Virus record (IMG/VR): IMGVR_UViG_2534682207_000010
Location: 12,441-76,440 of that record
Reading direction: 5' to 3' (one strand)
DNA length: 64,000 nucleotides
Source of the DNA: a virus
Taxonomy: Duplodnaviria; Caudoviricetes
Shown: in pieces, positions 3,524 to 56,941 of the stretch
Numbering within the stretch: position 1 is the stretch's first letter
Layout: every line of letters begins with the position of its first letter
Translations under genes and position numbers: made by a program
Notes under the pieces: generated by a model
Database searches by the model: none
The model's input: only the letters and a program-made list of their open reading frames with translations
Told to the model about the DNA's origin: nothing

Positions 3524-3973
3524 ATGAACAGAGTCATTTTAATGGGTCGACTGACCAGAGACCCGGAAGTGAGATATTCCCAGGGAGAACGCTCCATGGC
3601 GATTGCCAGGTACACCCTTGCAGTGGACAGAAGGGGCCGCAGGAACCAGGACAGTTCCGCAGAGCAGCAGACAGCCGATTTTATCAACTGTGTTGCATTT
3701 GACCGCGCGGCCGAGTTTGCCGAGAAGTATTTCCGTCAGGGAATGCGGGTACTCGTGTCAGGCAGAATCCAGACAGGTAGCTATGTAAATAAAGAAGGTC
3801 AGAAAGTATACACCACCGAGGTCATTTTGGATGACCAGGAGTTTGCGGATAGTAAAGGAGCTTCCAGTGGTGGAAATCAGCCACAGGATAGACCTGCTTC
3901 AAACAGTCCGCTTGGAGATGGATTTATGAATATTCCAGATGGGGTAGAGGACGATGGTCTTCCCTTCAATTAA
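3524..3973 (+). CDS. ssb: single-stranded DNA-binding protein
   Basis: MNRVILMGRLTRDPEVRY N-terminus, OB fold, acidic DDGLPF tail. Confidence 0.97.
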   Translation: MNRVILMGRLTRDPEVRYSQGERSMAIARYTLAVDRRGRRNQDSSAEQQTADFINCVAFDRAAEFAEKYFRQGMRVLVSGRIQTGSYVNKEGQKVYTTEVILDDQEFADSKGASSGGNQPQDRPASNSPLGDGFMNIPDGVEDDGLPFN

Positions 3974-3986
3974 GGCGGTGGTATGA

Positions 3987-4604
3987 TTGAAAATCCTTAT
4001 TGATAAAGGGCAACAGGCCCACAAGCATGATTTAAAGCATGATTGTCTAAAAGCATTGGGAGCGGAATTACAGACTGTTCCGCTTCCGGTGGGAGATTAT
4101 GTTTTAGTAGACGACAGGGTTGCTGATGTTTTGAAACGGAAAGAAGCAAGAGGAATCCCGGTAAAGAAAATGGATTTATCCGGTAGCTACACTGTTTCGG
4201 TGGACACGAAGAGGGATATACAGGAAGCAATTGGGAATATTTGCGGTAAACAACATGAACGTTTTCGAGATGAATGCATTCTTGCCATGAATAATGGAAT
4301 AACTTTATATGTCCTTGTAGAGAACGAGGATGGCATTTCCTGCCTGTCTGACCTGTACGCATGGGAAAATCCACGCAGGAGAATGCAAAAGTGGACTACA
4401 ACACCTTCAGGAGAGCGTAGAAAGGTATTACTAAGCCCTAATGCAACAAAAGGAGAGACACTGGCGAAAGCTATAGAGACGATGGAACAAAAATACGGAG
4501 TGAAATTCCTTTTCTGCAAACCGGAAGAAGCTGGTGCAATGATATTGAAATTATTGGAGGTAGGTAATGGCAGAAAGACGTATGATGTCAAAAAAAATCA
4601 TTGA
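3987..4604 (+). CDS. ERCC4-domain nuclease (putative junction resolvase)
   Basis: LPVGDY...VDTKRDIQE...ERFRDEC pattern of phage ERCC4 proteins; TTG start. Confidence 0.7.
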   Translation: MKILIDKGQQAHKHDLKHDCLKALGAELQTVPLPVGDYVLVDDRVADVLKRKEARGIPVKKMDLSGSYTVSVDTKRDIQEAIGNICGKQHERFRDECILAMNNGITLYVLVENEDGISCLSDLYAWENPRRRMQKWTTTPSGERRKVLLSPNATKGETLAKAIETMEQKYGVKFLFCKPEEAGAMILKLLEVGNGRKTYDVKKNH

Positions 4605-5361: not shown

Positions 5362-5611
5362 GACAGACTTTGTGGATGTTATTTCATTTTTGCGTGGAGC
5401 TTATGCCAGAAATGATTTGCTGAAGGATGTAAACGAGGTTAATGTATGGTTCGAAGCACTGTGTGATTTAGAGTCCGAATGGATAAAGAAAGCAGCAGTC
5501 CAATGGGTTCAAGAAAGCAAATTTCCACCAGCAATTTCCGAGATTAGGGATTTGGCAAAGAAAATTGAACAACGTGCTTACGAGAATGGTGAGACCAAGA
5601 TATGGCAGTAG
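5354..5611 (+). CDS. helicase loader/inhibitor (G39P-like)
   Basis: Position after initiator; W...L.DL...KFPPAISEI pattern. Confidence 0.6.
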   Translation: MSKTDFVDVISFLRGAYARNDLLKDVNEVNVWFEALCDLESEWIKKAAVQWVQESKFPPAISEIRDLAKKIEQRAYENGETKIWQ

Positions 5612-7632
5612 GGAAAAAGATATTTGAACCAGATGAAATCCGAAAAACAATACAGGCCTTAAAAGACTCTGGGGAACTGTTTGAGGTAAGATGCCTTGAG
5701 TCAAATGGAAAAAGAGTTAGTAGCGGATATTTTCGTGACACAGAAATGATGCTGGAACAGCTAAGTAAATTGAGTACATCTGATAGTAACATATATATTA
5801 TGCTTAACAATATCAAACCAGAATGCTACTCCAGAGAGCAACGCGATAAATTTATTACAAATGCAAAAGTTCAAACCAGTGATAATGATATTTGCGGATA
5901 TGAATGGCTGTTTATTGATGTGGACCCGAAACGTCCTGCGGGAGTGTCAAGTACGGATGAACAGTTGAGACAAGCCAAGGGAGTGGGAAATAAGGTTTAC
6001 GCCTTTATGAAAAATCTTGGGTTTAATAATCCGATAACAGCCATGAGCGGAAATGGAATTCATCTATTGTACAAGATTAGGCTTCGGAACAGTGAGGAAA
6101 ATAAGACACTAATTAAAAATTGTCTTTTAGCGCTGGATATGCTTTTTTCGGATGAATTTGTCGATATTGATAAAACGAATTTTAATCCGGCACGAATTTG
6201 TAAGCTGTATGGAACCATGGCCCGCAAAGGAAGTAATACACCGGAGAACCCGCATCGAATGAGCCATTTGTTGTCAGAGGGAAGTAGGGAACCGACCGAC
6301 AGGGCATATCTGGAGAAACTGTCCGCTATGCTTCCGGTACCAGAGAAGCCACAGAAATACAATGGTTACAGCCCCAGAGAATTCGACTTGGAGGAATGGC
6401 TGATAAAATATGGATTGCGGTATCAAAAGACCAGTTATTCGGACGGAACCAAGTATATTTTGGAACAATGCCCGTTTGACAGCAACCACAAAGGAAAAGA
6501 CGCCTGTATTTTCCAGGCGCGGTCAGGGGCAATCGGATTTCATTGCTTTCACAATTCCTGCCAGGACAAGACCTGGAGGGATGTGAGAATGTTGTTTGAG
6601 CCAGATGCCTATGAGAAGTGTCAGCAGGATTATGAGCGGAGGATTTATTCCCGCCAGCCAGTACAGCAGGCAAAGGTTATACGGCCGATAGATGGAAAAC
6701 CAGTATTTTATACAGCTCAGGACGTTCTGAACCTGCCAGTACCAGAAGAAAGATTTATCAAAACCGGAATTGCAGATATAGACAAGAAACTGCGTGGAAT
6801 GAAAAAAGGTTACGTTTCCGTTATGTCTGGACTGCGGGCCGCCGGAAAGAGTTCTGTGATTTCTGAAATGGTTCTGGATGGTGTTGAGTCTGGAAATAAT
6901 ATCGGAGTTTTTTCCGGGGAACTGGCACCAAAGAACTTTATGCGTTGGATGAATTTACAGGCGGCTGGAAAGGGATACACAGAAACAACTCAGTTTGAAG
7001 GGTATTACAACGTACAACGGAAATACCAGGAGCAGATAGCACAATGGTTAGGAGAACACTTCTGGTTGTATAACAATGAATACGGATTTGACTTTCAGGC
7101 AGTAGTTGACCAGTTTAAGAGAAAAATCGAAAAAGATAAACTGGATATGCTGATTCTGGACAACCTAATGACCTTTGATATTTCCGGTATGTCAGAAAAC
7201 AAATTTGAGGCACAGACTAAGTTTATCCTTGCTTTACAGGGTGAGATAGCCAAGCCATACAATGTGCATATCATGTTTGTGGCACATCCGAGAAAAGCCA
7301 TGGGATTCCTCCGGTTGGATGATATTTCAGGAACAGCAGATTTGGGCAACGCTGTAGATAACGCTTTTATTGTTCACAGAGTAAATCAGGATTTTAAACG
7401 CCTTAGTAAACAGATGTTTGGATGGAAAGATGATAACCAGATTTACCAGGCTACAAACGTTATAGAGATTGCTAAAGACCGTGATGGCGGTGTGATGGAT
7501 TACTTTATCCCACTTTATTATGAGCCAGAAACCAAACGCCTGAAAAACTATTCTTCCGAAAACAAAATATACGGGTGGAATAAGACCGATAATGGCTTCA
7601 TTGCAGTACATGGGGAAATACCGTTTGATTAA
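5602..7632 (+). CDS. primase-helicase (primase-like N-terminus, SF4/DnaB-like ATPase C-terminus)
   Basis: FIDVDPKR and SGNGIH primase-like motifs, Cys/His Zn cluster, Walker A variant SGLRAAGKS, Walker B LILDNL, VAHPRK. Confidence 0.85.
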   Translation: MAVGKKIFEPDEIRKTIQALKDSGELFEVRCLESNGKRVSSGYFRDTEMMLEQLSKLSTSDSNIYIMLNNIKPECYSREQRDKFITNAKVQTSDNDICGYEWLFIDVDPKRPAGVSSTDEQLRQAKGVGNKVYAFMKNLGFNNPITAMSGNGIHLLYKIRLRNSEENKTLIKNCLLALDMLFSDEFVDIDKTNFNPARICKLYGTMARKGSNTPENPHRMSHLLSEGSREPTDRAYLEKLSAMLPVPEKPQKYNGYSPREFDLEEWLIKYGLRYQKTSYSDGTKYILEQCPFDSNHKGKDACIFQARSGAIGFHCFHNSCQDKTWRDVRMLFEPDAYEKCQQDYERRIYSRQPVQQAKVIRPIDGKPVFYTAQDVLNLPVPEERFIKTGIADIDKKLRGMKKGYVSVMSGLRAAGKSSVISEMVLDGVESGNNIGVFSGELAPKNFMRWMNLQAAGKGYTETTQFEGYYNVQRKYQEQIAQWLGEHFWLYNNEYGFDFQAVVDQFKRKIEKDKLDMLILDNLMTFDISGMSENKFEAQTKFILALQGEIAKPYNVHIMFVAHPRKAMGFLRLDDISGTADLGNAVDNAFIVHRVNQDFKRLSKQMFGWKDDNQIYQATNVIEIAKDRDGGVMDYFIPLYYEPETKRLKNYSSENKIYGWNKTDNGFIAVHGEIPFD

Positions 7633-7703
7633 ACACACATTTTGAAAAATATGAAAGGAGTCGACCTCCGGCCGGAGAAAAGCTATAGCGGGTCCTTTTG
7701 AAA

Positions 7704-9329
7704 ATGAGAGATTTGATTATTGACTGTTTCGCTGGTGGCGGAGGGGCAAGCGTAGGAATAGAGATGGCACTGGGGCGACCGGTTGATATTGCAATCAACC
7801 ATGACCCGCAGGCGATTCGGATGCACAAGGTTAATCACCCGGATACGCTGCATTTGTCAGAGGATATATTCAAGGTTGACCTGCAAAAGTATGTAAGAGG
7901 ACGGCATGTGGCGCTTATGTGGGCGAGTCCAGACTGCACCAGTCACAGCAAAGCGAAAGGAGGACAGCCAAGGAAAAAAGGACTGAGAATCCTACCGTGG
8001 GCGGTGTACAAGCACACCAAAGCAATTCTTCCAGATGTAATTATCATGGAGAATGTGGAGGAAATACAGCAATGGGGGCCGTTGGACAAGACAGGCCATC
8101 CGATACCAGAGCGAAAAGGAGAGGATTACAAAAAATTCATTACCGCGATGAAGTCTCTCGGATATGACTTTGACAGCCGAGAGTTGGTGGCGGCAGATTA
8201 TGGAGCACCTACTACGAGGAAGCGCTGGTATGCAATCTTCCGGCGAGACGGTAAGCCGATTATCTGGCCGGAGCCGACACATAGTAAGAAGGGCACAGAC
8301 GGATTGAAGAAGTGGGAGCCTATCTGGAAGTATTTGGACTTGTCGGATATGGGGAAATCTATTTTCAACAGAAAGAAGCCACTGGCGGAAAAGACCATGA
8401 ATCGGATTGCACGGGGAATGGAGAAGTTTGTGTTTAATTGCCCGGAACCATTTATTGTACAGGTTAATCATGGTGGAGACAATTTCCGTGGTCAGAATAT
8501 TCACGAGCCAATGCCAACGATTACAGGGAAACATGGATTTGGAGTGGTAACACCATATATCATGCAGATAGGGCAAACAGGATTTTGTGCCGATAGAAAC
8601 CGTAGCATGGAAGAACCCATGAGTACAGTAGTTACAAAGAATGAGCATTGCTTAATCAGTCCTATTCTTATCCAGTATCATTCCGAAACTACCAAGAGCG
8701 GAGTGAGAGGGCAATCACTGGTGGAGCCAATCCAGACAATAGATACAAGTAACCGTTACGGGCTGGTTATGGCATTCTTGACAAAGTTTTATAAGTCAGG
8801 TTCTGGACAGTCTCTGGCAGAGCCGATACATACGATTACCACCTCTCCGGGACACTTCGGACAGGTCAGTGTGCTGGCGATACCGAAAGAAGAACTGCTT
8901 TCCAACGTTGGGAACGAAGCAGACGAGATAATTCAGAAATGCACCTGGGTGTCGCAATTTATCATGGAGTATTACGGCTGTGGTATTGGTCAGAGCATAA
9001 ATGGCCCTCTTCACACGATTGTGACGAAAGATAGATTTGCGTTGGTTACAGTGCTGGGGAACGAATATGCCATCATGGATATCTTCCTGCGGATGTTAAA
9101 GCCAAAGGAGTTAATGCTGGGGCAGGGATTTCCTCCAGATTATATTCTTGACCGGGATATTGACCGGAAACCATATCCTATAAGCGAACAGGTTGCACGC
9201 ATCGGAAATAGTGTGGTGCCAATTATGGCACAGGTGCTGGTGCAGGCAAATTGTCCGTATCTCAAAGTGGGTGAGCGGATGCCAAATATGAGAATTGATG
9301 ATAGTGAAATACAGCTAAAGTTTGCATAA
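7704..9329 (+). CDS. DNA (cytosine-5) methyltransferase
   Basis: DCFAGGGGAS motif I, SPDC catalytic motif, ENV, RKR, IGNSV. Confidence 0.93.
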   Translation: MRDLIIDCFAGGGGASVGIEMALGRPVDIAINHDPQAIRMHKVNHPDTLHLSEDIFKVDLQKYVRGRHVALMWASPDCTSHSKAKGGQPRKKGLRILPWAVYKHTKAILPDVIIMENVEEIQQWGPLDKTGHPIPERKGEDYKKFITAMKSLGYDFDSRELVAADYGAPTTRKRWYAIFRRDGKPIIWPEPTHSKKGTDGLKKWEPIWKYLDLSDMGKSIFNRKKPLAEKTMNRIARGMEKFVFNCPEPFIVQVNHGGDNFRGQNIHEPMPTITGKHGFGVVTPYIMQIGQTGFCADRNRSMEEPMSTVVTKNEHCLISPILIQYHSETTKSGVRGQSLVEPIQTIDTSNRYGLVMAFLTKFYKSGSGQSLAEPIHTITTSPGHFGQVSVLAIPKEELLSNVGNEADEIIQKCTWVSQFIMEYYGCGIGQSINGPLHTIVTKDRFALVTVLGNEYAIMDIFLRMLKPKELMLGQGFPPDYILDRDIDRKPYPISEQVARIGNSVVPIMAQVLVQANCPYLKVGERMPNMRIDDSEIQLKFA

Positions 9330-9357
9330 CAAAATTAACATTTAGCGGAGGTAAGAG

Positions 9358-9540
9358 ATGTTTTTATTGGAGAGAAAAGAAAGCTATGCAATGCCAAATA
9401 TTTTAGGAAATTGCTCACAACCGGTATATACATATCGCTGGAAAGCGATAGCGAAAAGTGAGACAGAGCGGCCACTATTAGATATGATTAAGGATATGGA
9501 TGTTACAACGCACAGAATAGTATCTAATCAACCGGATTAA
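9358..9540 (+). CDS. hypothetical cassette gene
   Basis: GGAGGT RBS after motif 9331; stop codon inside motif 9533. Confidence 0.65.
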   Translation: MFLLERKESYAMPNILGNCSQPVYTYRWKAIAKSETERPLLDMIKDMDVTTHRIVSNQPD

Positions 9541-9555
9541 AATTTGGAGGATAGG

Positions 9556-10248
9556 ATGGATTTCGGATATTACAACATGGATTGTATGGACGGGATGGAG
9601 CAGTTTCCGGATAAGTATTTTGACCTTGCGATTGTTGATCCGCCCTACTTCTCTGGCCCAGAACGCAGGAGATATTACGGAAGGAAAGTAAGCCCCATAG
9701 GCGTGCAGCGTTTTTATGAGCCTTCAGAAAACTGGGATGTACCCGGAGATGAATATTTCACGGAATTGGAACGGGTATCTAAGCATCAGATCGTATGGGG
9801 CTGTAATTATTTTAACTGGCATTTTCTGCCTGGCAGAATCATATGGGACAAATGCAATGGGAAAAGTAGTTTCTCAGATTGCGAGATTGCCTCCTGCACT
9901 TTACATGATTCAGTGCGCTTGTTCCGGTATATGTGGAATGGAATGATGCAGGGGAAATCCATGGAAGAAGGATGGATACAGCAAGGCAATAAGAAACTCA
10001 ATGAGAAGCGGATCCACCCAACGCAGAAACCGATTAACCTCTACCGCTGGTTGATTCAGAAGTATGTACAGCCTGGGTGGAAGGTAATAGACACGCACGT
10101 AGGAAGTGCAAGCAGCCTGATAGCATTTGAGGAGGCCAAACTACCATATGTGGGATTTGAGATTGATCCTAATCGGTATAAGTTGTCGAAACAGAGGCTT
10201 GAAGTGCATAGGGCGCAGTTAGCGTTGCATTATTTTGGGATATATTAA
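9556..10248 (+). CDS. DNA N6-adenine/N4-cytosine methyltransferase (beta class)
   Basis: DPPY motif IV, HPTQKP, DTHVGSAS motif I variant, GFEID. Confidence 0.88.
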   Translation: MDFGYYNMDCMDGMEQFPDKYFDLAIVDPPYFSGPERRRYYGRKVSPIGVQRFYEPSENWDVPGDEYFTELERVSKHQIVWGCNYFNWHFLPGRIIWDKCNGKSSFSDCEIASCTLHDSVRLFRYMWNGMMQGKSMEEGWIQQGNKKLNEKRIHPTQKPINLYRWLIQKYVQPGWKVIDTHVGSASSLIAFEEAKLPYVGFEIDPNRYKLSKQRLEVHRAQLALHYFGIY

Positions 10249-10281
10249 CATTTTTCGGGAGAACTGAAGGAAGGAAAAGAT

Positions 10282-10566
10282 ATGAAGGTATCAAAAGAAA
10301 TAGCAGAAAAGGCTGCTGAATACGAAGCGTTAAAAGAAAAATCAGATAAACTGTTCGAAGAATTGCAAAAGTGGTTTTCGGAGAATGCGGATATGGATGA
10401 TTGCTATTTATATGGATTCGGGGTGGCACAGGAAGCAGACGGTGAGGAGCAGGAGGAAGGGGAATACTGTAACCAATACCAGCGCGGTGAAGATTCGTTC
10501 GATGGAACATATTATTGGGCGGTTGAGGATAGCACACAATATGTATGGGTTAATTATTCAATTTAA
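10282..10566 (+). CDS. acidic hypothetical cassette gene
   Basis: RBS after motif 10241; stop codon inside motif 10559. Confidence 0.7.
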   Translation: MKVSKEIAEKAAEYEALKEKSDKLFEELQKWFSENADMDDCYLYGFGVAQEADGEEQEEGEYCNQYQRGEDSFDGTYYWAVEDSTQYVWVNYSI

Positions 10567-10658
10567 GATTTGCTTAACATGAGCGTGTTTTACAGGTTTT
10601 ACATGTTTTTGTCAACTAAATTAAAATTTTCCGGGAGAACCGGAGGAAGGAGAACATT

Positions 10659-10928
10659 ATGAATGATTTAACGTTAGTGTTACCGATAGCCATTGGTGGG
10701 AGAATATGGGATATTGATTTTCCAGAGCGTCCCGCCCTAGTTATGGGGTATCGAATTGGAAGAATGATGGGAGAAGATGATGCGGATTACGAGGAAAGCT
10801 ATGAAGATGGAGAGTTATACATCCAATATACAATAGGGGGAGTAGAAGGTTCTTCGCCTGTGTCAAGTATAGGAGAATCCCTCTTTCTGACAAAGGATGA
10901 ATTGATACAGGCTGTTTCACAAAACTGA
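10659..10928 (+). CDS. hypothetical cassette gene
   Basis: RBS after motif 10617; ends QN-stop inside motif 10921. Confidence 0.7.
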   Translation: MNDLTLVLPIAIGGRIWDIDFPERPALVMGYRIGRMMGEDDADYEESYEDGELYIQYTIGGVEGSSPVSSIGESLFLTKDELIQAVSQN

Positions 10929-10961
10929 CATTTAACTCATTAAGAGAGAAAGAGAAACGAT

Positions 10962-11099
10962 ATGGAAGAATTAATTAAGGCGTTACAAAGATTTGACAGT
11001 TTGGAGACAGTTATTGCCGAATTAAAAGCTTATGATAGACAAGACGGCATCGAAGAATTAGTTGAATATCTTAACGATGAAGCTGATTACTTACGCTAA
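10962..11099 (+). CDS. 45-aa hypothetical cassette gene (MEELIKALQRFDS...)
   Basis: Hand translation; lies between motifs 10921 and 11106; purine-rich leader. Confidence 0.55.
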   Translation: MEELIKALQRFDSLETVIAELKAYDRQDGIEELVEYLNDEADYLR

Positions 11100-11140
11100 C
11101 GAATAGAAATTAACAATTTATACAAGAAAGGCAGTGCAGT

Positions 11141-11287
11141 ATGCGTGGTGATAAAAGCAGTGTATATATCCTTGAGGGTAAGGAACTGAATGCAGACGAA
11201 CTTATTATGGAATTAGCGGAGCGAGGAAAAATATTCTTAAATTTTGACAAGGATATATCAAAATTTGGCGTAGAGGTAACTCTTTAA
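11141..11287 (+). CDS. 48-aa hypothetical cassette gene (MRGDKSSVYILEG...)
   Basis: Hand translation; AAAGG RBS; stop codon overlaps motif 11286. Confidence 0.55.
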   Translation: MRGDKSSVYILEGKELNADELIMELAERGKIFLNFDKDISKFGVEVTL

Positions 11288-11316
11288 AATTAGCATTTTC
11301 AGGAAGAAGGTATCAG

Positions 11317-11481
11317 ATGGATTTTTATAACTGTCCTTATGTTGTAGTTATTCCGTTTCGCAATAGAAATGAGTATGATGAGGATTACAGATGTGAGGTA
11401 ACAGGGAAGTACTGTCAATGTTGCCAGTGTAAATTGACACCAGAAGAGTGTGAACAGTTGATTCAAAAACAGAAAAATTAA
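11317..11481 (+). CDS. 54-aa Cys-rich cassette gene, paralogue of 1755-1943
   Basis: MDFYNCPYVVVIPFRNRNEYDE...CQCKLTPE; stop codon inside motif 11474. Confidence 0.7.
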   Translation: MDFYNCPYVVVIPFRNRNEYDEDYRCEVTGKYCQCCQCKLTPEECEQLIQKQKN

Positions 11482-11504
11482 CATTTAAGGAAAGAAGGCG
11501 CGTT

Positions 11505-11789
11505 ATGAGATTAATTGATGCTGACGCTTTTAATAAGCAGGTGGCGGCTATGACGATAAAGGAAAATTACCCAGTAGAAAAAGCCAATGCAATGATGAAG
11601 TTGATTGATATGCAGCCAACGGCGTTAGATATGGCTGATATTCTGGCACAATTAGAAAAACGTATTAATACACAGTTACAAATTATTACTGGACTGAATG
11701 ACCCGGTGTATGAGTACGGTTTTACTAAAAGCTTGGAAGCATATCAACAATGCCGCTTGATTTTGGAGGACGCTATTCACGAAAACTGA
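11505..11789 (+). CDS. hypothetical phage protein (MRLIDAD family)
   Basis: Common phage N-terminus; ends EN-stop inside motif 11782. Confidence 0.75.
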   Translation: MRLIDADAFNKQVAAMTIKENYPVEKANAMMKLIDMQPTALDMADILAQLEKRINTQLQIITGLNDPVYEYGFTKSLEAYQQCRLILEDAIHEN

Positions 11790-11833
11790 CATTTTATGGA
11801 GGTGTAAGATGCTAACATTTAGGAGAAGAGAAG

Positions 11834-11986
11834 ATGAATCATAAAGTGGAAAATATTTCAAAGCTGATTGTAGGAGAAAGAAGTATAGAAACATCCGTGA
11901 GCAAAGTATCAAAAGAGACAGGTGCAGTGCTCACGGAGTTAGTAATGAAAAGCGATAAAGAAAAAATTACTTTTCAAGTACGGTAA
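11834..11986 (+). CDS. 50-aa hypothetical gene
   Basis: Hand translation; AGGAG RBS after motif 11808. Confidence 0.5.
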   Translation: MNHKVENISKLIVGERSIETSVSKVSKETGAVLTELVMKSDKEKITFQVR

Positions 11987-12209
11987 AGTTGCCGTTTCCG
12001 TCATCCTTTAGTTCACGGTTTGTTTTGATGATAATTTTATCAGCATATTCAATCATTTCAATAACAAACCCATTGGGATAAGTGGAACGGTGGTGAATAC
12101 AGTCGGCAGTATGCCGCAGAGTTTCCTGCTGAATCTCCGAAAAATTATTACAAAATCCTTTTGTATCAATATTATTTTTAGATCCAGCGGTAAATGTGTA
12201 TTCATACAT
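11967..12209 (-). CDS. hypothetical protein (80 aa)
   Basis: AAGGAGG RBS before ATG 12209 on minus strand. Confidence 0.6.
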   Translation of the reverse strand: MYEYTFTAGSKNNIDTKGFCNNFSEIQQETLRHTADCIHHRSTYPNGFVIEMIEYADKIIIKTNRELKDDGNGNFTVLEK

Positions 12210-12379
12210 ATAACCAGCCTCCTTTCTATATGTACTCAGCTCCGGGCAGGGAGCCTGTACCCAAAGTATAGGGGCAAAAACATTAAAAATCAATAAGGAG
12301 AAAACTGAAATAAGCCAAAAAGCGATAAGGTTAATCGCAAAAAACAGAACAAATAGAACAATGGAAGGAGCGTATACAT

Positions 12380-12565
12380 ATGAAGGTTGGAGAGTATTTG
12401 AAAGAGCAGCGGGAACAGCAGGGCTTGTCCAATGCAAAGCTGGCGAAAGCAGCTGGAGTGTCAAAGCGCTCCCTTATCTATTGGGAGCAGGGTAGGGATA
12501 TGAGCGTGGAGGTGGCCGATAAAGTACTTAAGGCCCTGGGCGCGACCTGTAAAATAGGTGCATGA
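12380..12565 (+). CDS. XRE-family helix-turn-helix regulator
   Basis: LKEQREQQGLSNAKLAKAAGVSKRSLIYWEQG HTH; GGAG RBS. Confidence 0.88.
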   Translation: MKVGEYLKEQREQQGLSNAKLAKAAGVSKRSLIYWEQGRDMSVEVADKVLKALGATCKIGA

Positions 12566-12599
12566 TTGTGCACCAAAACTGATATTTTGGAGGATGCGA

Positions 12600-12767
12600 A
12601 TGTATCAATATTATATATCGGCGGCAACCAATGTTGGTTATGTATCTTTTGTGTATAAACTTGATTTTAAGATGGATTCGGTAGAAAACATAAAAAAGGT
12701 ATATGATATGTTGGAAGAAAGCGGAATAACAAATCCGACTATATTGTTCTTTAATCAATTAAACTGA
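12600..12767 (+). CDS. hypothetical cassette gene
   Basis: GGAGG RBS after motif 12575; ends at motif 12767. Confidence 0.6.
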   Translation: MYQYYISAATNVGYVSFVYKLDFKMDSVENIKKVYDMLEESGITNPTILFFNQLN

Positions 12768-12791
12768 AAATTAATATTTGGAGGATGGAAC

Positions 12792-13034
12792 ATGATTGAA
12801 AGGAAAAGGGAAATCTCTATCGTAAAAGACCGTGAGTTTTTGTCAGCGGAAAATGACGCATACAATGCCCTCGTTGCTAAAGGGTATACTCCGCAAGGTG
12901 CCGATACGGGATTTAAGACAGTCTGCGTGATGCTGTTTGAGCATCCAGAATATGCAGAGAATCCAGCCAAACGAGGCAAATGTAAAGTATATCATTTTAA
13001 AAATTGGCAAGAAGCCTTAGCGCAACTAAACTGA
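12792..13034 (+). CDS. hypothetical cassette gene
   Basis: GGAGG RBS; stop codon inside motif 13027. Confidence 0.7.
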   Translation: MIERKREISIVKDREFLSAENDAYNALVAKGYTPQGADTGFKTVCVMLFEHPEYAENPAKRGKCKVYHFKNWQEALAQLN

Positions 13035-13055
13035 CATTTACAGGAGGAATAAGCC

Positions 13056-13409
13056 ATGGATAAAAAGACGATAGTATTTGATTTTGATGGAGTGATACAT
13101 AGTTACACAAGCGGGTGGCAGGGTATATCAGTTATACCAGACCCGGTTGTGCCAGAGATACAGGCAGCAATCAATTACTTACGCATGGAAGGGTACGAGG
13201 TAATTGTGGTATCTACCAGATGTGCAAGGCCAGAGGGTATGGGAGCGGTTAGGCGCTATTTGAGAGATAACCATATTGTGGTTGATGATGTAGTTGCACA
13301 CAAGCCGCCTGCAATCTGCTATATAGACGATAGAGCAATATGCTTTGACGGAGACGCATTAGGACTAATTGGGAAGATTAGGGCTTTTAAACCCTGGAAT
13401 CAAAATTAA
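13056..13409 (+). CDS. HAD-superfamily phosphatase-like protein
   Basis: DFDGVI motif I and YIDDRA; ends QN-stop inside motif 13402. Confidence 0.8.
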   Translation: MDKKTIVFDFDGVIHSYTSGWQGISVIPDPVVPEIQAAINYLRMEGYEVIVVSTRCARPEGMGAVRRYLRDNHIVVDDVVAHKPPAICYIDDRAICFDGDALGLIGKIRAFKPWNQN

Positions 13410-13439
13410 TATTTCCGAGAGAACCGGAGGAAGGAAAAG

Positions 13440-13673
13440 ATGAAAGTTGTCAAAAAGAAGATACTGCCTGAATACTTTCGGGTGGTGCGAGCAAGAAAGA
13501 AGAATTTTGAAATCCGGGTGGATGAAGATAATGTCCAGGTTGGAGATTTGCTTATTTTGGAAGAGTGGGATGGGTTTTATACGGGAAACAGTGTAAGGCG
13601 GCATGTTAAATATGTTTTGCGGGACGCCCCATCACTTGGTTTAAAGCCAGGGTATTGTATCATAAGTTGGTAA
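13440..13673 (+). CDS. DUF3850 / ASCH-like domain protein
   Basis: KILPEYF...KKNFEIR.D...QVGD.L.LEEW signature. Confidence 0.8.
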   Translation: MKVVKKKILPEYFRVVRARKKNFEIRVDEDNVQVGDLLILEEWDGFYTGNSVRRHVKYVLRDAPSLGLKPGYCIISW

Positions 13674-13710
13674 AGTTAAGATTTGGCCGCTGAGTGCCAG
13701 AAAGGAAGAT

Positions 13711-13980
13711 ATGATGAAATTAGTAGATACTGTAAACGGAATGAACAGTGCAGATTACAAAGAGAGATTTATTGCAGAGTATCAGCAGCTAGTTATCAGA
13801 TACAGAGGGCTGACAAGTATGCTCTATAAATGGGACAGGGGAATAGACCTTGGGTTTGTTCCTACTTGCCCTAGAAGCACATACAATATGCAGGTAAAAG
13901 CAATGACAGATTATATCGCGGTCCTTGAAGCCAGAGCAGTGATGGAAGGTATTGAACTGGATTTGAGTACTGTTCTTTGA
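13711..13980 (+). CDS. crAss001_48-related phage protein
   Basis: MNSADYKERFIAEYQQLVIRY...L..RAVMEGIEL pattern recalled from this family. Confidence 0.65.
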   Translation: MMKLVDTVNGMNSADYKERFIAEYQQLVIRYRGLTSMLYKWDRGIDLGFVPTCPRSTYNMQVKAMTDYIAVLEARAVMEGIELDLSTVL

Positions 13981-14051
13981 GACTAAGCTGATATCAGCAG
14001 TATTAACATTTGGAGGGATATTTGAATCCGCACTTGAGGGAGGAAAGGAAC

Positions 14052-14297
14052 ATGAAACCAGAAGAGGCTATTGATATTATTAAGCGTATGTACAAAGGAA
14101 CACCTACAACGGAACAGTATGAAGCCTTAGAAGCAGCGTATGAGGCACTGGGAAAGCAGATACCCAAAAAAACTCCTAGAATTTATGGGGCAATGGGTGA
14201 AAAATATGAATGTCCTGAATGTGGTAGCGGGTTGAGAGATACAGATTTGTTTACAGGGCATTGTAAATGGTGTGGTCAGGCAATTAAACAATATTAA
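14052..14297 (+). CDS. Zn-ribbon phage protein
   Basis: ALGKQIPKK...CPECG...CKWCGQA; stop codon inside motif 14290. Confidence 0.75.
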   Translation: MKPEEAIDIIKRMYKGTPTTEQYEALEAAYEALGKQIPKKTPRIYGAMGEKYECPECGSGLRDTDLFTGHCKWCGQAIKQY

Positions 14298-14315
14298 TAT
14301 TTTGCGGAGGTGTGT

Positions 14316-14468
14316 ATGGATAAAGATTTTTCAAAAGGGTTTATGTATGATGTTGCAGATTTGTTGGAATATTGTGCAGAAAATAATACAGATAATGTCG
14401 ATTTGATTTTTACGTTTGGGGATAAGGAACTGAATGTAAATGTCACATTTTCAATTAAACAAAACTGA
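14316..14468 (+). CDS. 50-aa hypothetical cassette gene
   Basis: Hand translation; GGAGGT RBS; ends QN-stop inside motif 14461. Confidence 0.65.
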   Translation: MDKDFSKGFMYDVADLLEYCAENNTDNVDLIFTFGDKELNVNVTFSIKQN

Positions 14469-14496
14469 TATTTGTGATACGAAGGGAGGTACCTGA

Positions 14497-14718
14497 TTGA
14501 GAAAGAAAGCAGACAGTAAGCAGGCTAAGGTCAGTCGTATCGACCGCAGCAAGGCGCTGGCCGCCCAGGCTGACGAGGCCATCAAGGAGCGCATCCGAAC
14601 GGCGCCGCCGTACATGTATACCAGCCTGTGCCCGGTTCCGGGATTGCGCCGGCTGCCGAAGGGAGTGATACGGTATTATGAGACAGTGTTACATAGACAA
14701 CGGGCGCCGCGGGTGTGA
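14497..14718 (+). CDS. basic hypothetical phage protein
   Basis: GGAGGT RBS, TTG start, first gene after the array. Confidence 0.55.
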   Translation: MRKKADSKQAKVSRIDRSKALAAQADEAIKERIRTAPPYMYTSLCPVPGLRRLPKGVIRYYETVLHRQRAPRV

Positions 14719-15732: not shown

Positions 15733-16755
15733 ATGGCAGAACAGGTAAGTATGGATGATGTTGTCAGGCGTGTTATGGATAATATTGTAAATGTCATCGA
15801 AGAACAGGAACGACTTAATCAAGTAAAACAGATACTCAACATGTGTTTATCGAAATTTCAGTTTTTTACAGAAGAAACAGCGTTGTCTAATGAAATAGAT
15901 AGGTCAGTGGAATACCTTAATGCCTATTTGCTCCAGATGAAGCTGGACGGATGTACAGATGGTAGTATTAACAATTATAAATGTAATCTAAAAAATATGA
16001 TGACATATATAAATAAAAATGTAACGGAGATTACATACCAGGATTTAAAGGGGTACCTTGCATATGGGAAACTTGTGCGCAAATGGAAAGATAGAACTTA
16101 TAATAGTAAACTTATATCGATACGTAGTTTCTTCTCCTTTTTGTACACAGAAGATTTATTGCCAGAAAATCCCGCAAAAAAATTGAAGGAAACGAAAGTG
16201 GAATACAAGATAGGGGCAACGTTGCAGCCTGAACAACGTGAAATGGTTAGATGTGCCTGCGAAAATGAATTTGAACTTGCGTTATGTGATATGCTGTATG
16301 TTACGGGAGTTCGTGTGTCAGAATTATGTGGTATGGATATTTCCGATGTAGATTTTCAGCGAAAAACGGCAATAGTTTATGGTAAAGGAAGAAAAGAGCG
16401 TCAAGTATATCTTAATGGACAGGTTGCTCTTCATTTATGGAGGTATCTGGACGGTAGAAATGATGATAATCCAGCTTTATTTGTGTCTCCCAATAGGCCA
16501 AAGAGCCGCATTTCTGGTCAGACAGTTCGTAATATTTTACAGTGTATAAAGGCAAGAGATGCAGAATTGGAAGGTGTGAAAGTTACTCCCCATGTGTTCC
16601 GGCGTACTGTTGGAACAGATATGATTAACAAAGGTGCTCCAGCTGAAATTGTAAAGGAAGCACTTGGACATGTTAAGATTGATACAACATTAAAATGCTA
16701 TGCAGCAATCAGCAGAGAGACAGTACAACAGGCACATGCAAGATTTGTTGGATAA
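15733..16755 (+). CDS. tyrosine recombinase (XerC/D-like, SAM-like N-domain)
   Basis: Catalytic residues intact: TGVRVSEL (R), GKGRKER (K), TPHVFRR (HxxR), LGH, TTLKCYA (Y). Confidence 0.93.
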   Translation: MAEQVSMDDVVRRVMDNIVNVIEEQERLNQVKQILNMCLSKFQFFTEETALSNEIDRSVEYLNAYLLQMKLDGCTDGSINNYKCNLKNMMTYINKNVTEITYQDLKGYLAYGKLVRKWKDRTYNSKLISIRSFFSFLYTEDLLPENPAKKLKETKVEYKIGATLQPEQREMVRCACENEFELALCDMLYVTGVRVSELCGMDISDVDFQRKTAIVYGKGRKERQVYLNGQVALHLWRYLDGRNDDNPALFVSPNRPKSRISGQTVRNILQCIKARDAELEGVKVTPHVFRRTVGTDMINKGAPAEIVKEALGHVKIDTTLKCYAAISRETVQQAHARFVG

Positions 16756-16981: not shown

Positions 16982-18373
16982 GTACAACTCGATTTAAATA
17001 AGCTTACAATTTAAGCATTGGTAGTAATCTGATTTCTTGGCTTACGTGTCCGTGCTTTGGGCGCACGTTTCCCTTGGTTTTCAGGACTTGCTGCTTTCGC
17101 ATTTACAACTTCATAGACGATTGTGCCCACATCCTCTTCCGAAAGATCAATCGTGTCCAAGCGGTATTTCCATTTGTAGGGGACGGGAACCTCATTGATT
17201 TCTTCAAAGTATTTCAAAATCCGTTCCTTTAGTTCCTCTTTCGAGCCTACACGAATCCCGGACAACATCTGGCGGGTCATTTTGCTGAAAAAGCCTTCCA
17301 CCATATTCAGCCAGGAGCCATGTGTGGGTGTGAACACAAATTCAAACCTTCCAGGAACTGTATTCAGATATTCCTGTGTCTCCCTGGATGTATGGGCGGA
17401 GTGGTTATCCAGTATAAGCCGTATTTTGTCCCCTTTTGGGTATTTCTCATCCAATATTTTAAGGAATGTTACAAAATCGCTGCTTTTATGAGTATTGCTT
17501 ACCAGTGGGATAGCTTCCCCGGTCAACAGGTCAATCGCTGCCAATAGGGAGAGCGTCCCCAGACGTTTATACTCATAATCACGCTGTACGGTGGACATTT
17601 TTTCCGTACTGGCAACCGGGGGCCTGTCCCCGGTTGTGGTGGCAATCGCTTGGATCCCGGGCTTTTCATCATAGGATAATGTATGTACCGGCTCTTCATC
17701 ACCGGCAAACGGAATCAAACTTCCATTTTCATCAAAGCGGAGTTCAACCTGTTTGTAAATGACCAGCACATCATGCATCTTCTTTTCAAAGTCAGGATCC
17801 CGTTTTTCACAATAATAGGTGACCTTATGGGGATTAAGCATTGCTTTCCTAAGTATCTTCCGGATAGAAAACTCAGATGCTGTCGCCATACGGGGATATC
17901 CTTCCTGTTCAGCAACGGAATTGATGTAGCGGGTAAGGCTCAATGGATACCATAACTCTGCCGGGAGGCCGAATGCGGAAGGCTTTTGGCAGGCAATATT
18001 GATTACCCATGCCTTTGCATCATCGGTAATTTCAATCCTGCGGCCACGGCCTTTACTGTCTTCCATGGCAGCTTTCACGCCTGATTCCATATATTTTTTC
18101 AGGCAGAGCTTTACCGTCGGTCTCGAAATATCGAGTTTGTCAGCAATGGCTTCATCTGCCATGCCATCTGATTTTAATAAGAGGATTTTGGCTCTCCTGT
18201 GGACTCTGGCTTCAACAGTCCCCTTCTGTAGAATGGACTTTAAATATGACTTATCATCATTGGAAAGAAAAATAGGCGTAGCACTCTTTGGCATCATTTT
18301 ACCTCCTGAAATGGTCTATAAGTATTATACCATTTCAGGATAATAATGTAAACTTATTAAAATCGAGTTATAC
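16982..18373 (-). mobile_element. IS630-family insertion sequence
   Basis: Imperfect ~26-bp terminal inverted repeats (GTACAACTCGATTTAAATAAGCTTACA vs GTATAACTCGATTTTAATAAGTTTACA); TA duplication in CTAG context at 16980-81 and 18374-75. Confidence 0.92.
17011..18297 (-). CDS. IS630-family DDE transposase
   Basis: N-terminal HTH, YDEKPGIQA, DYEYKRLGT, LILDNHSAH, FTPTHGSWLNMVEGFF. Confidence 0.95.
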   Translation of the reverse strand: MMPKSATPIFLSNDDKSYLKSILQKGTVEARVHRRAKILLLKSDGMADEAIADKLDISRPTVKLCLKKYMESGVKAAMEDSKGRGRRIEITDDAKAWVINIACQKPSAFGLPAELWYPLSLTRYINSVAEQEGYPRMATASEFSIRKILRKAMLNPHKVTYYCEKRDPDFEKKMHDVLVIYKQVELRFDENGSLIPFAGDEEPVHTLSYDEKPGIQAIATTTGDRPPVASTEKMSTVQRDYEYKRLGTLSLLAAIDLLTGEAIPLVSNTHKSSDFVTFLKILDEKYPKGDKIRLILDNHSAHTSRETQEYLNTVPGRFEFVFTPTHGSWLNMVEGFFSKMTRQMLSGIRVGSKEELKERILKYFEEINEVPVPYKWKYRLDTIDLSEEDVGTIVYEVVNAKAASPENQGKRAPKARTRKPRNQITTNA

Positions 18374-27728: not shown

Positions 27729-27799
27729 TGGGATTTAGCTGAGAGGTATAGCAATAGGCTGTTAACCTATGGACATCGGTTCGAATCCGATAATCCCAG
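27729..27799 (+). tRNA. tRNA-Asn(GTT)
   Basis: TGGGATT/AATCCCA acceptor; ATAGG-CTGTTAA-CCTAT; GGTTCGAATCC. Confidence 0.92.
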
Positions 27800-27803
27800 T
27801 TCA

Positions 27804-27885
27804 GGATGAGTAGCCTAGCGGCGAGGGCAGCAGACTGTAAATCTGTGACAAGGAAACATCGTTGGTTCGAGTCCAACCTCATCCA
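27804..27885 (+). tRNA. tRNA-Tyr(GTA)
   Basis: GGATGAG/CTCATCC acceptor; GCAGA-CTGTAAA-TCTGT; long variable arm. Confidence 0.93.
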
Positions 27886-27903
27886 TTCGTATGACCGTGC
27901 TTA

Positions 27904-27977
27904 GGACGCTTAGCAAAGTGGTTAATGCATCCGGCTCATAACCGGAAGATTCCTGGGTTCGATGCCCAGAGCGACCA
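27904..27977 (+). tRNA. tRNA with CAT anticodon (Met or Ile2)
   Basis: TCCGG-CTCATAA-CCGGA; GGGTTCGATGCCC; one acceptor-stem mismatch. Confidence 0.85.
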
Positions 27978-28016
27978 TTGTAGTAAAAGTTAATTAATCA
28001 TAAAGGTGTGTGAAAT

Positions 28017-28316
28017 ATGAGATTTATTAGAGAAACCAACCATTCTTCTGCAATTATTTGTGGAAAACTTTATAGAACAAATAATGCGGAAGTAATTGGT
28101 GAACAAAATGGTAGAAAATATTTTATGACTCTTAGAAGAAACTTCTTTTCGGCAAAATGTGGATTTGAAGATTATCAAGATGCATATGGAGATGCTCACA
28201 TAATTGCAATTTACTCTGATATTAGAATGGAATCAGTAGAAAAAGCAAAAGAGATTCTTGGATTTACTGATGTTAAACGATATTGTGAAGTTTTTGGACA
28301 AGTAGAAGAAGCATAG
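28017..28316 (+). CDS. hypothetical protein inserted in tRNA cluster
   Basis: AT-rich ORF with AAGGTG RBS between tRNA-CAT and tRNA-Gln. Confidence 0.6.
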   Translation: MRFIRETNHSSAIICGKLYRTNNAEVIGEQNGRKYFMTLRRNFFSAKCGFEDYQDAYGDAHIIAIYSDIRMESVEKAKEILGFTDVKRYCEVFGQVEEA

Positions 28317-28321
28317 ATTTA

Positions 28322-28393
28322 TGGGCTATCGCCAAGCGGTAAGGCACAGGACTTTGACTTCTGTACTCGTTGGTTCGAATCCAACTAGCCAAA
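28322..28393 (+). tRNA. tRNA-Gln(TTG)
   Basis: TGGGCTATCGCCAAGCGGTAAGGC 5' end; CAGGA-CTTTGAC-TTCTG; GGTTCGAATCC. Confidence 0.9.
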
Positions 28394-33820: not shown

Positions 33821-33901
33821 GTGAAAAATTATGTCGATTTAAACCAGTGCCTAGTGAGCCTTCGACCTTTGCGAAATAAACAGAGGAAGGAGGCTTTTCT
33901 T

Positions 33902-36680: not shown

Positions 36681-37136
36681 ATGCAAGCTTTGACAAGAGA
36701 GTATCTGGCAACTTATGTGTACCTGGAATCTGAAATCAAAAGAATTCGGGGCAGAATAAAATATTATGAAAATCATCCGGTTCAGCAACAGTATGGCATC
36801 GTAAAAGGCTCTATGAAGCAGTTTCCATTTACTGAATGTCATTTTGTGGTTTCTGGTCCAACTATAAAGTCGAACTTAGAACGGGAAAAAATGGTACGCC
36901 AGTTGATTATCGACCTCAAAGGTAATGAACAACTTTTTGAAGATATGAAATTAGATATTGAGACTTTTTTGGAAACACTACCTGCTGAGGATATTGAAAT
37001 TAAGCATATTTTAGGATTAAAGTATGTAGAACGCAAATCCGATGGAGAAATAGCGAAGAAATTGAATTATAGCAGGAGGACCATAGGACTTAAGATTGAT
37101 AAGTTTCTGAATGCGATTCAAAAAGAAAAGAAGTAG
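36681..37136 (+). CDS. late transcription activator (RinA/ArpU-like, sigma region 4 type HTH)
   Basis: C-terminal LKYVERKSDGEIAKKLNYSRRTI HTH; upstream of portal. Confidence 0.7.
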   Translation: MQALTREYLATYVYLESEIKRIRGRIKYYENHPVQQQYGIVKGSMKQFPFTECHFVVSGPTIKSNLEREKMVRQLIIDLKGNEQLFEDMKLDIETFLETLPAEDIEIKHILGLKYVERKSDGEIAKKLNYSRRTIGLKIDKFLNAIQKEKK

Positions 37137-37585
37137 CAATTTAACAGGTAAAACGAATACCAGTGATTTTAACAATTTGAAAAATTCAATTGTCATGGTC
37201 AATGTCACTGGATTTGCAATTGGTATTGACGGTAATAATGTTATAATCCAGTGGTTGACCGGAGTAAATAGAGAATTTGGCTATGCACTTAATATTAGCA
37301 CCACGGATGGTACAATGCAGTTCTTCTATCGTGAGAATGGTGCGTGGAAACCATCCTGGACCAAATAATCATTTTATCCATATTACGGAATCTGTTCCAG
37401 TTTTTCTGTCTCTGGATGCATATGTTATTCCATCGTTAGAGAATGTAAGTAAACGTGACCATTCTTCGTTAAAAATAAATTCCAGTGTTATCCCTTGGAG
37501 GTTTTCGTTTACAAAGATTATCATTTTCTGACAACGGGTGAACGTAAATGACCCAGTACCTAATTTACTAACTAAATTGCTACTT
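37131..37585. other. remote pair of silent tail-fibre C-terminal cassettes between inverted AAGTAGCAATTTA sites
   Basis: Sites 37131-37143 (+) and 37573-37585 (-); start-less frames 37132-37368 (+, 78 aa SSNLTGK...WKPSWTK) and 37584-37369 (-, 71 aa SSNLVSK...SVIWIK) meet stop-to-stop. Confidence 0.88.
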
Positions 37586-37590
37586 TATTC

Positions 37591-52251: not shown

Positions 52252-52821
52252 ATGAAAAAGGGAATAACATTCGCATTTATTGTAGCTATGACATTAATAA
52301 TGAATATGCCTGCCTATGCAGGAGAATGGAAACAAGATTCAAGTGGTTGGTGGTATCAGAATGATGATGGAAGTTACCCTTCTAACCAGTGGAAGGAGAT
52401 TGAAGGAAAGCAGTATTATTTTGACCAATCAGGTTACAAACTTGTGAATGCTATCACGCCAGACGGAAGATTGGTTGATGGAAACGGAGTACTGATAGTC
52501 TATAATAATGGTTCTTACCAATCCATTTTGGATTACTATACCGTAAAAATCAAGGCAGCGACACCTGGCTTGATAGCTGAATATAAAACAGAAGCGGAAA
52601 ATAATACAAACGGATTGATGGGATTGGCAGAAATATCCAACAATAAAGTATTAGCATTGGCTGAAATATCCAATGAGGGTGTTAGAGAGATGGCAGATTT
52701 ACTATTTAGAGTAGGTTCTGGAAAATATAGTGAATATGAAGAGTGGGCCGGAAAACTATATGATGTTTATTCTGATGAAGCCGATAAAATATATGACGTG
52801 TACATGAACTCTGCTTTATAG
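52252..52821 (+). CDS. secreted protein with cell-wall-binding repeats
   Basis: Signal peptide ending AYA; WKQDSSGWWYQ...KQYYFDQSGY repeats. Confidence 0.8.
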   Translation: MKKGITFAFIVAMTLIMNMPAYAGEWKQDSSGWWYQNDDGSYPSNQWKEIEGKQYYFDQSGYKLVNAITPDGRLVDGNGVLIVYNNGSYQSILDYYTVKIKAATPGLIAEYKTEAENNTNGLMGLAEISNNKVLALAEISNEGVREMADLLFRVGSGKYSEYEEWAGKLYDVYSDEADKIYDVYMNSAL

Positions 52822-52871
52822 TCAGAATTCCGTGTCTGTGTAATGTATCTTTATTATACTAGGAGAATAAA

Positions 52872-53519
52872 ATGGCCCTTATAAAATGCCCAGAATGTGG
52901 GAAAGATGTATCTGAAAGGGCATCTTGCTGTCCAAATTGCGGATATCCGATTAACGAATTAAGTAAAAATGATAATCTTGAGCCATTAGTTGGGATATCA
53001 ATCGAGGATTCCAACGTTCTTTACTATAATTCAAAAAATTTAGAGATAGAACAATACGGCAAACAGCTTGTTAAAGATGGTCTTTCTTCTTTTCTTGTGA
53101 CTGATGTTATAAAAGATACAAGTCCAGCTCTTTTAATTGGACATAACAAATTAACAAAAACAATAATTGCAAAGATAACTGCTCAAAATGAAAGTCAATT
53201 AAGGCAATTTAAACAGTGTTATGATGTTTGCAAACAGACAGTAATAACTTCACAATCGCCTTCTAAAGTAATTGACAAGAAACAAAAATGTTGTCCTCAA
53301 TGTAAAGGTACTAATTTGCAATATTTGGGAAATGAAAATATGGGAAGTAGAGAAGCAAAAACAAAAATTACAACGGGTTTAAACCTCAATCCACTAAAAC
53401 CGTTTACCTTATTCAACCATAAAGAGAAAATAGTAAAAAAAGAAAAACCAGGTATAGATTTTGATAGATGGCGTTGTCAGGATTGTGGAAAAGTATTTAC
53501 GACTATTAAACAACAATAA
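52872..53519 (+). CDS. zinc-ribbon domain protein
   Basis: MALIKCPECGKDVSERASCCPNCG plus C-terminal CPQC/CQDC. Confidence 0.8.
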   Translation: MALIKCPECGKDVSERASCCPNCGYPINELSKNDNLEPLVGISIEDSNVLYYNSKNLEIEQYGKQLVKDGLSSFLVTDVIKDTSPALLIGHNKLTKTIIAKITAQNESQLRQFKQCYDVCKQTVITSQSPSKVIDKKQKCCPQCKGTNLQYLGNENMGSREAKTKITTGLNLNPLKPFTLFNHKEKIVKKEKPGIDFDRWRCQDCGKVFTTIKQQ

Positions 53520-53664
53520 ATAGCAAGTCGATGAAACGCAGTAAAATCAGCTCAAGCGGAATAAGGAAAAACACGCCGGGAAAATTATTGCAAGTCGCGA
53601 GCTTTTGTGATAATATATATAATTATCTCTAAAATTAATCGTTGAAGAAAGGAGCTGCCTAACC

Positions 53665-56826: not shown

Positions 56827-56898
56827 ATCAATATGACGTTGTATTTTGAAGAGGTTGCGAAGAAAGTAAAATAACTTTGAAATGAAAGTTAATATGCA

Positions 56899-56941
56899 AA
56901 AAAGTACCCACTCTGTTTATAATAGGGCGGGTACTTTTTTA
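56899..56941 (+). terminator. intrinsic terminator after RM gene
   Basis: AAAAAGTACCC...GGGTACTTTTTT. Confidence 0.7.

Follow-up and report, generated by a model that had tools for sequence, protein, structure and literature searches.

A candidate minimal recombination site between exchangeable single-gene units in an accessory region of Enterocloster-type phages

The 64,000-nucleotide window studied here covers positions 12,441 to 76,440 of the virus record IMGVR_UViG_2534682207_000010 (Caudoviricetes), a 76.4-kb provirus record. By open reading frame (ORF) map and family searches, directly downstream of a primase-helicase gene (5602-7632), it carries an array of small genes (7630-14473) separated by a short motif in direct orientation. 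With a probability of about 0.6, judged from sequence comparison, this motif is a minimal site-specific recombination site, present as direct repeats between units of one ribosome-binding site (RBS) plus gene in an accessory region of Enterocloster-type phages. Comparison of related arrays showed the sites to be true crossover points: units have been acquired, lost, copied and rearranged there, and the exchange falls inside a 6-bp spacer. It also showed movement of units between unrelated phages. The host very likely belongs to the Lachnospiraceae: array units are present in the cultured Enterocloster bolteae phages PMBT24, CB473P3 and CB457P1, and relatives of the tyrosine recombinase encoded behind the array (15733-16755) carry names from Lacrimispora and Enterocloster.

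The core YTRANATTT has 17 copies on the plus strand of 9300-14500 and none on the minus strand. Dinucleotide shuffling (1000 shuffles) yielded a mean of 1.16 copies and a maximum of 9, and the enrichment that an earlier note on this DNA had proposed was confirmed. Outside the array, copies of the 9-mer are spread unclustered across both strands of the 76-kb record; the note had not seen the motif at gene junctions elsewhere in the window. The 19 same-strand sites counted in the note comprise the 17 exact copies and two variants, one with a 7-base spacer (11106-11119) and one with the spacer TTAGCA (11286-11298). The full 13-mer AAAAYTRAYATTT is exact at 8 sites only. The array had been placed at 9331-14473. 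Its right end holds; the real start is a twentieth site with a different spacer, CACACA, which overlaps the helicase stop at 7630-7642. Because this entry site precedes it, a C5 DNA methylase gene is counted as a cassette.

At exactly 10 sites, the TAA or TGA of the core is the in-frame stop codon of the upstream gene (9537, 10245, 10563, 10925, 11478, 11786, 13031, 13406, 14294 and 14465). The upstream proteins were said to end in QN, EN, LN or KN. This applies to several of them; others end in PD, IY, SI or QY, the full series in the order of the sites being PD, IY, SI, QN, KN, EN, LN, QN, QY and QN. A limitation of the core to stop codons was considered and is unsupported: TGG stood at 12 of 208 against about 17 expected, and the non-stop spacers TCGAAA, TCGTTA and CACACA are in use. 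The description of the cargo as unrelated genes was borne out by family searches, which assigned an N6/N4 methylase, a HAD-like protein, a DUF3850/ASCH protein, a PF21825 protein, a weak zinc ribbon and a helix-turn-helix (HTH) protein.

Relatives with 96-99% identical flanks differ almost totally in the genes between the same borders. Alignments of a first set of relatives with the window ended on sites in 48 of 72 cases, where 10% was expected, and the off-site ends were mostly low-identity matches within genes. A second, closer set gave 99 of 108. In a motif-blind comparison of all against all, both sequences carried a site at 159 of 260 ends (chance level 13% per sequence). Gains, losses and reorderings thus break at the core, as the note had predicted, and 18 of the 19 window sites were observed as breakpoints, the exception being 11808-11820. 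The 74 distinct arrays comprise 504 units in 286 families with a median length of 277 bp; 258 families contain a gene, and the typical unit is one RBS with one gene. The sites therefore delimit mobile, mostly single-gene units. These recur at 94-100% identity and in scrambled order in unrelated Enterocloster-type phages. One related array, L465, has at least nine window units in scrambled order. Across its 16 arrays, the HAD unit has 12 distinct neighbours upstream and 10 downstream, and an identical HAD protein is encoded by phages with unrelated replication modules. Both orders were found for 45 unit pairs and one order only for 206. Blocks are also inherited: the arrays L444 and L448 follow the window to 11486 and then switch, and block swaps between two phage genomes explain this part of the data. 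An assembly artefact was rejected, as 13 bp is below assembler word sizes and the junctions are shared by cultured phages and an NCBI genome assembly.

The general site is WAAA-[YTRRNR]-TTT, a consensus partly fixed by the search pattern itself, with a 6-bp spacer and the RBS usually 10-25 bases downstream, in agreement with the note. Apart from the RBS, no conservation was found beyond positions -4 to +8. At 445 validated junctions, the bases through -1 track the upstream unit and those from +9 the downstream unit. Counted per unit, the identity of the left arm was 0.93 with the upstream versus 0.26 with the downstream unit, and that of the right flank 0.07 versus 0.91. Spacer bases 4-5 agreed well with neither partner (0.44 and 0.46). 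Spacer bases 1-3, with the classes TTA, CTG and TCG, agreed with both (0.87 and 0.92), so that joined partners usually match there. Such matching was present in 129 of 153 cases versus 106 in within-locus shuffles, and none of 4000 shuffles reached 129; by the same shuffles, it was not significant at bases 4-5 (p 0.24) or in the left arm (p 0.94). As sequence evidence for matching at bases 1-3, this is good but not final.

The inheritance pattern points to a probable tyrosine recombinase that senses homology on one side: enzymes of this class, when doing a single strand exchange, need homology on only one side of a 6-bp overlap. Integron integrases likewise use one-sided homology. In the Xer-exploiting phage VGJ, one-sided homology of a 6-bp overlap is known (PMC5357621). 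In the proposed mechanism, an armless Xer-like tyrosine recombinase would cut at the spacer edges. Homology would be required only beside the first cut, the remainder being resolved by replication or repair, and nearly any site could pair with any other. Crossover between two co-resident phage genomes would result in block swaps, and excision or reinsertion inside one genome in single-unit moves. Since the crossover would fall between stop codon and RBS, the products would stay whole translatable genes under the early transcription of the backbone. The likeliest enzyme would be of the phage shufflon invertase family represented by the 15733 recombinase, acting at a low rate in cis or in trans, with a host Xer-like enzyme in second place.

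Several observations weigh against this mechanism. The matching was weaker in a stricter unit-level set (61 of 79 versus 56.7, p 0.03), and the junction pairs are not independent events. It is also not absolute: at the entry site (CAC), units belonging to other classes are joined. The arms of 3-5 bp hold about 16 bits, summed over columns that are partly imposed by the pattern, and are very short for a tyrosine recombinase. Some crossovers lie within a shared RBS leader (L448, L432). The array phages G024 (100% complete, 7 sites), G004 (86%) and G002 (84%) had no PF00589 match. An identical array is unchanged across several lysogens, which argues for low activity during lysogeny; turnover probably accompanies lytic growth or co-infection.

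An unlikely explanation, though the foremost of the rivals, is a spreading linker of stop codon plus RBS that is joined by phage annealing proteins (RecT, Sak) at microhomologies, with only between-gene crossovers surviving selection. It requires no dedicated enzyme and thereby fits the phages without a PF00589 match. RecT is encoded by the record itself (G000) and by G002, a longer hairpin-RBS leader precedes many unrelated genes with a minority of crossovers inside it, and one order of units is commoner than both orders. The crossovers, however, focus on the 6-bp zone and not on the whole linker, and matching, limited to three bases, is absent from the neighbouring A-rich arm and from bases 4-5. 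The phages G024, G004 and G026 had no RecT match. The motif persists at the 9 of 19 sites whose gene ends in a stop codon of its own, and it also borders a gene-less unit. A break hot spot, at which the dyad would be cut with a short stagger by a nuclease or type II topoisomerase of host or phage and its ends then joined imprecisely, is improbable. The short arms would suit a loose enzyme, and a few junctions have 1-2 base indels and new spacers, such as TTAAC-TTT, TTAAACATTT and TTAACAATTT. Spacer base 5 differs in about one third of same-neighbour junctions (0.68 identity, n=34). A generally hypermutable base was rejected, as position 5 is 97% conserved in ordinary matched contexts. Yet 182 of 188 junctions keep the 6-bp spacer, the single orientation and the left-sided matching are not expected from a symmetric cutter, and no candidate enzyme was found.

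A purely regulatory site is more improbable still. A protein-binding or RNA-processing signal at gene starts could collect breakpoints if swaps at gene boundaries are those that survive, and the strand of the motif tracks transcription, with the RBS behind it and with hairpin leaders and a promoter-like unit in the array. A signal of one gene, however, would not have its left half follow the upstream and its right half the downstream gene; the motif is missing at gene boundaries outside the array, and an Rfam scan had no match within it. The likeness to an integron suggested by the earlier note stands for behaviour, as sites bound rearranged single-gene units in one orientation in the 74 arrays, promoterless and with the stop codon in the core. 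It does not extend to parts. A true integron with IntI and attC cassettes is very improbable: the 15733 recombinase reached 64 bits with TIGR02249 against a cut-off of 265, over residues 78-239 only, and its nearest structures in the PDB are XerA and XerD, with IntI4 at only E 3.5e-8. The absence of a long attC-type hairpin was corroborated, since 100-nt windows at 18 of 19 sites folded no better than shuffles (z above -1.5); the exception is a leader hairpin. Site-specific recombination at the 13-bp site accounts best for these observations.

Known systems share parts of this picture. Integron cassette arrays, including phage CALINs (PMC9892861), are alike in direct orientation, mostly promoterless single-gene units, a stop codon often within the site, shuffled order and probably one-sided homology. 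The phage array differs by a 13-bp site without attC hairpin, the lack of IntI and many arrays without an adjacent dedicated enzyme. No attI or Pc was identified; the array has a fixed entry site (7630) and a terminal site (14461), and three backbone genes separate it from the recombinase. Acinetobacter plasmids carry pdif/dif modules (PMC6449649), in which genes also lie between sites with a 6-bp centre and move without bringing an enzyme of their own, and mobilisation by host Xer is compatible with arrays lacking a recombinase. However, dif sites have 28 bp with 11-bp XerC and XerD arms (PMC5357621), and no such site was present given the limits of conservation; the array sites have arms of 3-5 bp, stand in direct orientation throughout and are carried by a phage. 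XerS/difSL and XerH/difH (PMC5357621) resemble the array sites in the AAA...TTT inner arm ends around the centre; unlike these, they are single 31-bp sites per chromosome with long conserved arms. The 15733 recombinase reached 76 bits with the XerS profile (cut-off 267). PeSL cassettes of T4-type phages (PMC2839356) are repeats in hyperplastic regions with gene insertion, deletion and replacement, and in both cases mini-circles would be expected as a by-product. PeSLs are long elements of promoter and stem-loop, whereas the array site is a 13-bp dyad that contains the 6-bp crossover spacer but neither promoter nor hairpin. A sigma70 promoter with a terminator stem-loop was not found as a regular feature: promoter matches are at chance level (31 versus 26 expected) and hairpins are present at few sites. 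The array is integron-like in function and falls outside integrons, dif modules and PeSLs by their defining features. A literature search found no description of the array site, most subscription papers being outside its coverage, and a paper on Clostridium clostridioforme prophages (PMC11318856) mentions no motif or cassette.

The enzyme of the array is probably a tyrosine recombinase, as the junction pattern suggests. Its origin from the phage invertase family including 15733 is a tentative assignment, and a host Xer-like enzyme is the less likely source. The 15733 recombinase is the sole tyrosine recombinase of the record, XerA/XerD-like, armless and with intact catalytic residues. The note had proposed it for an excision test; as the array enzyme it stays a candidate, with a clearer role at four identical WAART-AGCA-ATTTA sites and with arrays that exist without a tyrosine recombinase. 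These sites form two inverted pairs 25 kb apart, a split shufflon. One pair lies in a silent store (37130-37143 plus, 37573-37586 minus). The other has a plus-strand site within the tail-fibre-like gene 61351-62178 (61958-61971) and an inverted one behind it (62467-62480, minus). Three relatives (G006, G007 and G008) have 3-5 such sites each and enzymes 87-90% identical to 15733; relatives have up to nine copies of the site (G019). The Rin tail-fibre shufflon of Bifidobacterium prophages (PMC6109161) has an armless XerD-like phage recombinase and short sites, and 15733 with its four sites fits this type: an armless enzyme with identical inverted short sites in a receptor-binding gene. On these grounds, inversion at the tail-fibre shufflon is the most likely function of 15733. 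Rin flips fibre tips between identical sites in inverted orientation; direct, degenerate sites and whole accessory genes set the array apart.

Array consensus and shufflon sites have the same preferred arm bases and differ in spacer class, and the shufflon class TAGCAA is nearly missing from arrays. Distinct spacer classes would let one enzyme serve array and shufflon without cross-reaction. G006 carries four array sites under a relaxed pattern besides its recombinase. Genes for Xer-like proteins (26-35% identity) are located 0.03-3 kb behind many unrelated arrays, and many arrays adjoin terminase genes directly. Array phages without a tyrosine recombinase indicate that the enzyme often acts in trans. 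We infer that an enzyme from a co-resident prophage or the host would suffice, since two genomes must in any case share a cell before phages can exchange units. The complete array phage G024 has three tandem serine recombinase genes (G024:C1:39354-43090).

All features of the array lie on the plus strand unless stated, and all sites but one are supported by breakpoints in relatives. The entry site (7630-7642) is a breakpoint in five arrays and has many different right-hand neighbours; its spacer bases 1-3 are constant and bases 4-5 variable. The unit behind it (7643-9330) has the C5 DNA methylase gene (7698-9329, PF00145), is missing in L002 and sits behind another unit in L029. The site at 9331-9343 (TTAACA), a breakpoint in five arrays, precedes a 60-amino-acid (aa) gene of no assigned function (9358-9540), whose unit (9330-9534) recurs at 99% identity in L085 and 95% in L471. 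The site at 9533-9545 (TTAAAA) gives the stop of this gene and is followed by the N6/N4 DNA methylase gene (9559-10248, PF01555; unit in four other arrays). A motif match inside this gene near 9816 was never a breakpoint. Array L448 holds the 230-aa methylase unit twice (L448:268-960 and 3684-4376). The site at 10241-10253 (TTAACA) supplies the methylase stop and precedes a 94-aa gene of no assigned function (10282-10566); an unrelated D5-primase phage (L441) encodes an identical protein. Its stop lies in the site at 10559-10571 (TTAAGA). The promoter-like unit behind, 58 bp and gene-less (10572-10620), moves alone: at least seven other arrays contain it as a cassette, with 93-96% identity. 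A sigma70-like forward match at 10598-10627 has its -10 box made by the site, and a reverse TTGACA is also in the unit.

The next site (10617-10629, TTAAAA) precedes an 89-aa gene (10659-10928), whose unit (10619-10933) recurs at 100% identity in the unrelated phages L450-L457. An IS110-family transposase is encoded among small genes upstream of this unit in one of them (L456:4797-6008). The site at 10921-10933 (CTGACA, with stop) precedes a 45-aa gene (10962-11099; unit in five arrays). At the site with one extra base (11106-11119, TTAACAA), relatives have 6-base spacers. One junction in L465 (L465:150-335) is imprecise: about 20 bases before the site, the C5 methylase end continues into window position 11118. 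The site with TTAGCA (11286-11298) is a breakpoint in L465 and CB473P3, and in the latter the unit of the following 54-aa cysteine-rich gene (11317-11481) lies between sites at 89% identity. At the stop-giving site 11474-11486 (TTAACA), L444 and L448 are 99.7-99.98% identical to the window up to 11486 and divergent after. A 94-aa gene follows (11505-11789; unit in two arrays), with its stop in the site at 11782-11794 (CTGACA). The site never seen as a breakpoint is weak (11808-11820, CTAACA). The multi-gene unit behind it (11821-12574) contains a 50-aa gene, a reverse-strand gene and an HTH gene (12380-12565), and its right part is present in one other array (L338). The site at 12575-12587 (CTGATA) starts a unit (12576-12773) found at 99.5% in L465.

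The site at 12767-12779 (TTAATA), a breakpoint in ten arrays, precedes an 80-aa gene (12792-13034) with its stop in the site at 13027-13039 (CTGACA). Then follows the HAD-like gene (13056-13409), the most mobile unit, ended by the site at 13402-13414 (TTAATA). The DUF3850/ASCH gene (13440-13673) and a site with TTAAGA (13672-13684) precede a Sequestin gene (13711-13980; PF21825, E 6e-17). This family acts as an anti-Thoeris sponge (10.1101/2025.07.12.664507), and the unit is present at 93% in PMBT24. Behind the site at 13999-14011 (TTAACA), the zinc-ribbon-like gene (14052-14297) is part of a unit (14002-14296) found at 99% at the front of the L002 array. The site at 14290-14302 (TTAATA) gives its stop and precedes a 50-aa gene (14316-14468; unit in three arrays). 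The terminal site (14461-14473, CTGATA) gives the last stop, and a 73-aa gene restarts the conserved backbone; most close relatives have their left breakpoint here at 14459-14462. A leader that contains an RBS and a CCGG-GAGAA-CCGG hairpin recurs at 10254-10281, 10630-10658 and 13415-13439, behind the respective sites. It precedes many unrelated genes (23 contexts) and may both have a regulatory role and serve as a further zone of crossover.

The backbone order is primase-helicase, array, three small genes, tyrosine recombinase and late genes. A serine integrase gene is located at the left end of the record. Behind the recombinase, a DDE_3 (IS630-type) transposase (17011-18297) is present in some relatives and missing in others. 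The window also has four tRNA genes (27729-28393) and a late gene for a 946-aa protein with LAGLIDADG/Hom_end domains (33821-36661), probably a terminase with intein. Genes inserted after a tape-measure-sized gene (52252-57516) include a 1053-aa ORF and a 156-aa ORF resembling an IS200 transposase.

The site type may reach beyond Enterocloster-type phages. Eighteen low-GC phage contigs (31-38% G+C) were retrieved by a pattern for Bacillus cereus-group prophages. Most have 2-9 oriented AAA-N5A-TTT sites before RBSs in several spacer classes, and TCGTTA is common to them and the Enterocloster-type arrays. Tentatively, and with somewhat less than even odds, temperate and virulent phages of Bacillota may share a cassette currency of single genes between minimal AAA-N6-TTT sites. 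An Xer-like tyrosine recombinase, probably identical with the enzyme that flips tail-fibre tips, would exchange these genes among unrelated phages, with spacer classes separating the two jobs. Related arrays also encode Acb2/Tad1 sponge and Lar restriction-alleviation genes (L433:6374-6739, L477:8607-8972, L438:8224-8403), and a PAPS-reductase-like unit and several methylase units recur among them.

Precise single-gene swapping in phages is an old question, for which illegitimate recombination followed by selection is the usual answer. In these arrays, the crossover was mapped to the 6-bp zone of a defined site over hundreds of junctions, with a candidate enzyme. Cultured pairs of phage and host (Enterocloster bolteae with PMBT24 and CB473P3) make the mechanism directly testable. 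Given how short and tolerant the site is, its recombinase would also be of interest as a tool. Among the cargo are DNA methylases, Lar, Sequestin and Acb2/Tad1 sponges, and the approximately 290 unit families, mostly unknown, are a list of candidate counter-defence genes. If the proposed reading is true, phage mosaicism and the spread of counter-defence genes would have a recombinase-driven source in these arrays, one analogous to integrons yet separate from them and from dif modules and PeSLs.

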